A stretch of 64,000 bases of DNA, from NCBI GenBank assembly GCA_000002445.1, contig CM000208.1, forward strand, positions 1,600,001-1,664,000, in the 5' to 3' direction. A model generated the notes under the pieces. It was not told where the DNA came from and ran no database searches. It saw only the letters and a list, made by a program, of their open reading frames with translations. Of this stretch, positions 26,769 to 26,804 are shown piece after piece. A program made the translations under genes and the position numbers. Origin of the DNA: Trypanosoma brucei (taxonomy: Eukaryota). Every line of letters starts with the position of its first letter. The first letter of the stretch is position 1.

Positions 26769-26804
<36 letters not shown>
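26769..26804. repeat. (GT)18 microsatellite at the strand-skew switch point
   Basis: Direct read: 36 nt of uninterrupted 'gt'. Confidence 0.95.

Follow-up and report, generated by a model that had tools for sequence, protein, structure and literature searches.

The perfect GT repeat inside a divergent strand-switch region of Trypanosoma brucei chromosome 10 is best read as a slippage-generated, polymorphic microsatellite in the spacer between two separate directional transcription starts, where it would be at most a weak, one-directional contributor to top-strand transcription; we put this forward tentatively, at slightly less than an even chance. The original prediction had taken the repeat for a bidirectional initiation core serving both gene arrays, and that reading is close to refuted. 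Its setting, a divergent switch region of an African trypanosome, and its assignment to a GT-rich motif class both hold, while the terms 'bidirectional' and 'initiation core' do not. The locus has already been dissected experimentally, with productive initiation located kilobases from the tract at G-run-bearing regions, and the tract itself is one more case of a published motif class that is already known.

Architecture of the locus

The window analysed here comprises 64,000 nucleotides of T. brucei TREU927 chromosome 10 (Tb927_10_v4:1,600,001-1,664,000), and the ORF coordinates in Table S2 of Kolev 2010 equal the window coordinate plus 1,600,000; for Tb427_10_v5 of Lister 427 the offset is roughly 1,603,676. 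The features on which the argument turns are collected in Table 1. Open reading frames of at least 150 aa belong to the minus strand as far as 19,849 and to the plus strand from 32,512 onwards, and the predicted divergence of gene orientation around the tract is borne out, with minus-strand genes up to MSH8/6 on one side and plus-strand genes from PMM onwards on the other. Both PMM and the MutS protein have T. brucei-group counterparts of 100% identity, and the literature gives Tb927.10.6440 as PMM and Tb927.10.6400/6510 as HSP60.

Table 1. Features in and around the strand-switch region, in window coordinates
Feature	Position	Strand	Remarks
MSH8/6 (Tb927.10.6410), MutS family	16856-19849	minus	Innermost leftward gene with Pfam support
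Divergent strand-switch region, 12.7 kb	19850-32553		Between MSH8/6 (minus) and PMM (plus)
Tb10.NT.63-66, four processed novel transcripts	20016-24044	minus	Bottom strand; Kolev 2010 Table S7; start of Tb10.NT.63 derived from its end coordinate and length
ORF Tb10.70.0410, presumably Tb927.10.6420	24461-24997	minus	Exact TREU927 protein match; Kolev 2010 Table S2, 1,624,461-1,624,997
C-run (G-run on the leftward coding strand)	25012-25016	minus	Top-strand C4 in TREU927
Substitution-free block, 1,233 bp	25577-26808		Four T. brucei-group genomes; GC-rich, skew-neutral
Perfect (GT)18.5 microsatellite	26769-26805	plus	GT on top strand; Tb927_10_v4:1,626,769-1,626,805
T9G11 run	27107-27126	plus	Starts about 300 bp after the GT tract; length-variable among strains
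ORF Tb10.70.0380, presumably Tb927.10.6430	29858-30235	plus	Exact TREU927 protein match; Kolev 2010 Table S2, 1,629,858-1,630,235
Start region regB, H2A.Z-defined	31284-37972	plus	Wedel 2017, Table EV1, Tb427_10_v5:1,634,960-1,641,653; primers mapped with 0-1 mismatches
regB1, 5' fragment of regB	31284-33083	plus	Contains T15G13 and (TC)10-T8G9
T15G13 run	31597-31624	plus	5' end of regB; Tb10.NT.67 starts at 31,595
(TC)10 followed by T8G9	32098-32134	plus	T8G9 at 32118-32134; just upstream of PMM, inside regB1
Phosphomannomutase PMM (Tb927.10.6440)	32554-33291	plus	Innermost rightward gene with Pfam support

Two further ORFs are annotated within the switch region, both as T. brucei-specific, and we assigned them the names Tb927.10.6420 and Tb927.10.6430 from gene order. 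Just beyond the first of these lies a homopolymer at 25,012 that reads C4 in TREU927, C11 in GCA_003543875.1 (positions 5152-5162 of the retrieved segment) and C18 in T. b. gambiense (5131-5148), shifting the predicted ORF from 178 to 231 aa. Because this polymorphism alters the predicted length, the sequence suggests that Tb927.10.6420 is spurious rather than a real gene. For the leftward start, the same C-run is a candidate G-tract in mirror image to the top-strand runs.

Several other possible occupants of the switch region were considered and rejected. A Pfam scan of 64 stop-to-stop ORFs of at least 70 aa between 19.85 and 32.55 kb was empty save for one chance-level match (E = 0.0099), which disposes of a degenerate retroelement or pseudogene remnant, and no copies of the switch-region interior were found elsewhere in the window. 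A tRNA or known RNA gene was dismissed on the grounds that ARAGORN found no tRNA gene, that Rfam returned nothing at gathering score in the whole window and nothing at E <= 1 in 24.8-27.4 kb, and on the folding-energy results given below. Finally, an early replication origin was rejected, as 1.62 Mb is not among the four early origins of chromosome 10, at 0.80, 1.25, 1.92 and 2.65 Mb (Tiengwe 2012).

On a larger scale, a segment of about 2.03 kb with the 562-aa HSP60 (Cpn60) gene and its flanks, Tb927.10.6400/6510, is present as two perfect inverted copies (window 13825-15851 versus 44431-46456). The copies differ solely by 1 nt in a C9/G8 homopolymer, and their 100% identity suggests ongoing gene conversion or assembly collapse. 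They flank the strand-switch region on both sides, and an inversion between them would leave both arrays correctly oriented.

The GT tract

That the repeat is genuine was confirmed, and no simple repeat in the window is stronger: it is a perfect (GT)18.5, bounded by ...gggtcagG on the left and Ggaaaccg... on the right, and its Tandem Repeats Finder score (74) is the best in the 64-kb window. A perfect dinucleotide run of 36-37 bp is not a chance product of random sequence; it is a slippage microsatellite. No other alternating purine/pyrimidine run in the window equals its 37 bp (the runner-up has 24 bp), and it is sited between divergent start regions, as a Z-DNA-prone tract might be. A literature search on (GT)n or Z-DNA at trypanosome switch regions gave nothing relevant.

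The tract carries GT on the coding strand for rightward transcription, as do five of the six short (GT)/(AC) runs elsewhere in the window with respect to their own local coding strand. No (AC)n or C-run was found at the tract that could serve as a leftward partner. Together with the T9G11 run, whose counterparts in other strains read T8G11, T10G10 and T9G9, the tract makes up a top-strand cluster of GT-rich 10-mers, with 10 hits in 360 bp.

Base composition and the skew switch

The repeat had been placed exactly at the strand-skew switch, and this did not survive closer inspection. The turning point of the cumulative skews is 25,512-25,514 for A-T and keto and 26,340 for G-C, and a segmented likelihood change-point fit gave one robust breakpoint, 25,520 (support 25,460-25,580), which precedes the tract by about 1.25 kb. 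Adding a further breakpoint at 26,740 gains little (delta log-likelihood 4.5); with the GT tract and T9G11 masked, this one is lost from that position and moves to 28.5 kb. Since the breakpoint vanishes under masking, the tract partly creates its own apparent switch; the notion that the skew starts at the tract was rejected on this test, and composition consequently gives no independent support for a start there.

The related claim that 25.1-26.7 kb is the most GC-rich part of the region was half right. A GC-rich block does extend over 24.75-26.25 kb, with its maximum (0.566) at 25.5 kb, but it is matched by another island, 30.25-31.75 kb, which reaches 0.570 at 30.75 kb. This second island sits just upstream of regB and mirrors the one near the probable leftward start, such that each start zone has its own GC-rich shoulder.

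Mapped starts and transcripts

Published transcript maps place initiation on either side of the tract rather than at it. On the top strand, Kolev 2010 (Table S7) lists NT.67 at 31,595-32,032 and NT.68 at 32,129-32,419; on the bottom strand the rightmost 5' end of the NT.63-66 group is that of NT.66, and no processed transcript is listed between 24,045 and 31,594. The GT tract thus sits in a gap of about 7.5 kb without processed transcripts, and the processed transcripts of the two strands do not begin at it: the nearest bottom-strand 5' end is 2.7 kb further left, at 24,044, and the nearest top-strand one 4.8 kb further right, at 31,595. In the same study no transcript was detectable for either of the ORFs Tb10.70.0410 and Tb10.70.0380 (Table S2), and the transcription units begin at Tb10.70.0420 on the minus strand and Tb10.70.0370 on the plus strand (Table S14). 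The four bottom-strand novel transcripts, each 0.5-1.2 kb long, occupy the left half of the switch region, in which no ORF matches a Pfam family; they may be non-coding RNAs heading the leftward array.

The rightward start has been studied directly. Wedel et al. 2017 (PMC5579346) cloned the H2A.Z-defined start region regB, whose left end, at 31,284, is 4.5 kb beyond the tract; the tract therefore lies outside the 5' fifth of this H2A.Z-enriched region. Its first fragment, regB1, was the most active regB fragment and one of the two most active in the reporter assays of that study, in which all twelve 1.8-kb fragments of two start regions showed activity (PMC5579346). Within regB1, the (TC)10-T8G9 element is probably a polypyrimidine/splice-acceptor region plus a G-run.

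Further evidence comes from Kieft et al. 2020 (PMC7055916), who show the locus in S10 Fig and put Tb927.10.6430 upstream of the wild-type top-strand TSS, where it is silent. Its expression rises 4-7.5-fold when PNUTS, JBP3 or Wdr82 is lost, and the top-strand transcription behind this derepression was ascribed to 'antisense' activity of the bottom-strand start (PMC7055916). On the transcript tables and these published statements, the rightward start lies between 30,235 and 31,595 and the leftward start to the right of 24,044. The latter most likely falls at about 24-25.5 kb, beside the skew switch at 25.52 kb and the G-run at 25.01 kb.

Relation to the GT-rich promoter motifs

Dataset EV1 of Wedel et al. 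2017 (PMC5579346) lists 10-mers that, within the 5' fifth of start regions, favour the coding strand, and the edges of the tract coincide exactly with three of them: GGTGTGTGTG at 26768, GTGTGTGTGG at 26797 and TGTGTGTGGA at 26798. Their counts on the coding versus the opposite strand are 15:0 for GGTGTGTGTG, 18:1 for GTGTGTGTGG and 6:0 for TGTGTGTGGA, and by fifth of the start region such (GT)n-edge 10-mers number 18, 15 and 12 on the coding strand in the first and 0-4 elsewhere (PMC5579346). The predicted membership of the GT-rich motif class is thus upheld for the tract edges, in the same coding-strand orientation. The pure (GT)5 10-mers that make up the tract body are absent from the EV1 list of 10-mers enriched at least six-fold. 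Seven more top-strand hits fall in T9G11, among them GGGGGGGGGG (G10), the top-ranked and most strand-biased 10-mer of the dataset (132 versus 17; PMC5579346).

Mapping the whole list on the window, we found that the polarity of the 10-mers flips between 24.9 and 25.9 kb, and that the top-strand hits of the switch region form clusters at 26.77-27.13 kb (10 hits) and 31.0-32.4 kb (21 hits). Similar clusters occur in ordinary intergenic DNA inside the gene array, at 38-39 kb (10 hits) and 59-60 kb (8 hits), so the cluster at the tract is not specific to start sites.

In functional work on these motifs, synthetic GT-rich composites of 210 bp and 416 bp drove strongly orientation-dependent transcription, at 11.6-fold under the endogenous level; (GT)4-7 stretches like those of the tract were built into the active synthetic promoters, and GT-containing synthetic elements drove transcription when inserted between divergent start regions (PMC5579346). 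Nucleosomes were strongly depleted over the GT-rich inserts, an effect ascribed to homopolymeric G and T runs, not GT repeats, and initiation clustered at the 5' ends of start regions enriched in H2A.Z, with a 4:1 strand bias (PMC5579346). A later paper describes divergent switch regions as two oppositely oriented directional core promoters. The tract resembles the elements of Wedel et al. in belonging to the same organism and to the very strand-switch region from which regB was taken, and in bearing their 10-mers on the coding strand at its edges. It differs in being a pure dinucleotide repeat, whereas the active elements are 210-416-bp composites dominated by G- and T-runs, and in lying outside the cloned H2A.Z-defined start region; the published elements, moreover, act one way and not two (PMC5579346).

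Comparison with other genomes

Within the T. brucei group the flanks of the tract are conserved and its length is not: TREU927 has 18 GT units, GCA_003543875.1 has 15, T. b. gambiense DAL972 has 22 and T. equiperdum OVI has 16. With copy number varying and flanks kept, the tract is, among these four genomes, a polymorphic microsatellite. It is like other polymorphic dinucleotide microsatellites in its perfect repeat, its conserved flanks and its alleles of 15, 16, 18 and 22 units, and no difference from them was demonstrated.

For more distant comparison we used three outgroups, T. vivax, T. cruzi and Porcisia hertigi. Conservation of a GT tract at the syntenic position, which the original prediction had offered as a check, was not found in any of them. 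In T. vivax there was no (GT) or (AC) run of at least five units in the 10 kb upstream of MSH8 or in the 1.1 kb upstream of PMM; the 1.2-kb switch region of Porcisia contains no (GT)/(AC) run of at least four units, and on reading the 0.5-kb switch region of T. cruzi we saw no such run. Nor did the T. brucei spacer resemble the switch regions of T. vivax, T. cruzi or Porcisia at the nucleotide level. Judged against these three outgroups, the tract is lineage-specific and not conserved outside the T. brucei group.

What does recur across genera at the syntenic site are TnGn runs, whereas the (GT)n repeat does not. The Porcisia hertigi counterpart of this PMM/MSH8 switch region has T10G9 on the coding strand (6923-6941), and the top strand here has T9G11 (27.1 kb), T15G13 (31.6 kb) and T8G9 (32.1 kb), all of the trypanosomatid TnGn or G-run type.

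The synteny on the PMM side is old, and the size of the switch region varies between genera, from about 0.5 kb in T. cruzi (retrieved 9505-10001) through 1.17 kb in Porcisia hertigi (6312-7479) to 12.7 kb in T. brucei. In Porcisia hertigi PMM points away on one side, and TLD followed by MSH8 on the other. For T. vivax, no gene is called over at least 7 kb upstream of MSH8, and PMM is not within the 10 kb retrieved. A TLD-domain gene stands beside the switch region in both Porcisia and T. cruzi and is missing from the T. brucei window. The left flank of the T. cruzi region (a 204-aa gene, Vps41, TLD, Sec7) is non-syntenic with T. brucei, and a tblastn search of the window with the proteins of this flank gave no match. 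On the other side, a 1010-aa gene of T. cruzi (retrieved 13663-16695), between a Metallophos gene and a 337-aa gene, has no counterpart in the window, where the matching interval of 36000-39400 holds just a 183-aa ORF at 38060-38611.

An invariant block beside the tract

Among the four T. brucei-group genomes the switch region diverges at 11.8 sites per kb, with zero substitutions in 25,577-26,808. This block spans from the skew change-point to the GT tract. A uniform-rate simulation gave P of about 1e-4 for such a block, a value that is overstated on account of the two-haplotype structure of the region: 85 of the 123 variable sites merely split two haplotype groups, and a single conversion tract or recently coalesced segment could produce the block. 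We found no Pfam, Rfam or RNA-structure signal in it and no repeat copy in the window, and its sliding-window MFE z-scores have a mean above zero. The block could accordingly reflect either constraint or a tract of conversion or recent coalescence.

Discussion

A bidirectional initiation core for both gene arrays, the role originally proposed, now seems very improbable. In its favour, the tract lies near the geometric centre of divergence (the midpoint is 26.2 kb between the flanking expressed genes and 27.4 kb between the inner annotated ORFs), its edges fall within the GT-rich motif class, and the block adjoining it is GC-rich and invariant. On the other hand, GT-rich elements work in one direction and switch regions consist of two directional promoters, so that 'bidirectional' has to be given up. 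The idea of an initiation core at the centre is likewise contradicted by the validated rightward start region beginning 4.5 kb to the right, by the lack of processed transcripts on either side of the tract, and by the wild-type silence of Tb927.10.6430, which lies between tract and rightward start, upstream of the TSS. A distance of 1.25 kb separates the tract from the robust skew switch, and a leftward partner, be it an (AC)n or a C-run, was not seen at the tract. Starts lying kilobases away, the outcome that had been named as speaking against the proposal, are very nearly what the transcript tables and published statements describe.

The opposite extreme, that the repeat is a neutral passenger, an ordinary microsatellite with no transcription role whose orientation mirrors the G+T richness of the rightward-coding strand, is a serious possibility, although we would not call it probable. 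Free length variation between 15 and 22 units in four genomes, the lack of a (GT)n at the syntenic switch region of T. vivax, T. cruzi and Porcisia, the same orientation in most of the other short runs, the position within the transcript gap and the omission of pure (GT)5 10-mers from the enriched list are all consistent with it. It accounts less readily for the genome-wide concentration of coding-strand (GT)n-edge 10-mers in the first fifth of start regions, for the transcription driven by (GT)-containing synthetic elements between divergent start regions, and for the position of the tract exactly at the border of the 1.2-kb invariant block. The twin-supercoiled-domain model and the propensity of (GT)n to form Z-DNA are established, and with the length of the alternating run and its location between two divergent start regions they speak for a structural element, in which the 37-bp run would flip to Z-DNA or exclude nucleosomes and soak up negative supercoiling, acting as a boundary and not as a promoter. 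Nucleosome depletion over GT-rich inserts in Wedel et al. points the same way, but those authors credited it to homopolymeric G/T runs, and the length polymorphism and non-conservation of the tract argue against a required element; we regard this role as distinctly unlikely.

Our preferred reading is that of a slippage-generated repeat in the spacer between separate directional starts. Productive leftward transcription starts to the right of 24,044, and productive rightward transcription between 30,235 and 31,595, at T15G13 inside regB. The GT tract and T9G11 would form a small coding-strand GT-rich cluster on the top strand that most likely contributes, if anything, to weak one-directional top-strand initiation or to nucleosome exclusion, and any such contribution would lie upstream of the leftward start region, on its antisense side. 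The PNUTS-JBP3-Wdr82 complex, which keeps Tb927.10.6430 silent, would end this top-strand transcription early in wild type. A close known parallel is the upstream-antisense transcription attenuated by PNUTS-JBP3-Wdr82 (PJW/PP1), described at this same locus (PMC7055916), with the GT tract and T9G11 on the same strand and 3 kb upstream of Tb927.10.6430. Kieft et al. (PMC7055916) implicate no GT tract and map no onset of top-strand transcription here, and the link to the tract is one that we infer.

Finally, what would these readings mean for trypanosome biology? How polycistronic transcription starts in trypanosomes has been hard to establish, and an initiation core at the tract, if true, would have supplied a minimal defined pol II promoter for these organisms. 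The practical gain is that the window is now anchored to Tb927_10_v4 coordinates and to the regB fragment of Wedel et al. The invariant block is the only item at the locus that may be worth pursuing further. It is possible, if unlikely, that the block, the (GT)n and T9G11 together constitute a sequence-constrained control element of the switch region; in one version, the block would be a fixed platform for the leftward promoter, with the GT/TnGn edge setting the PJW-attenuated top-strand start. If true, this would give an organism credited so far with dispersed promoters only a pol II control module that is both discrete and selectable.
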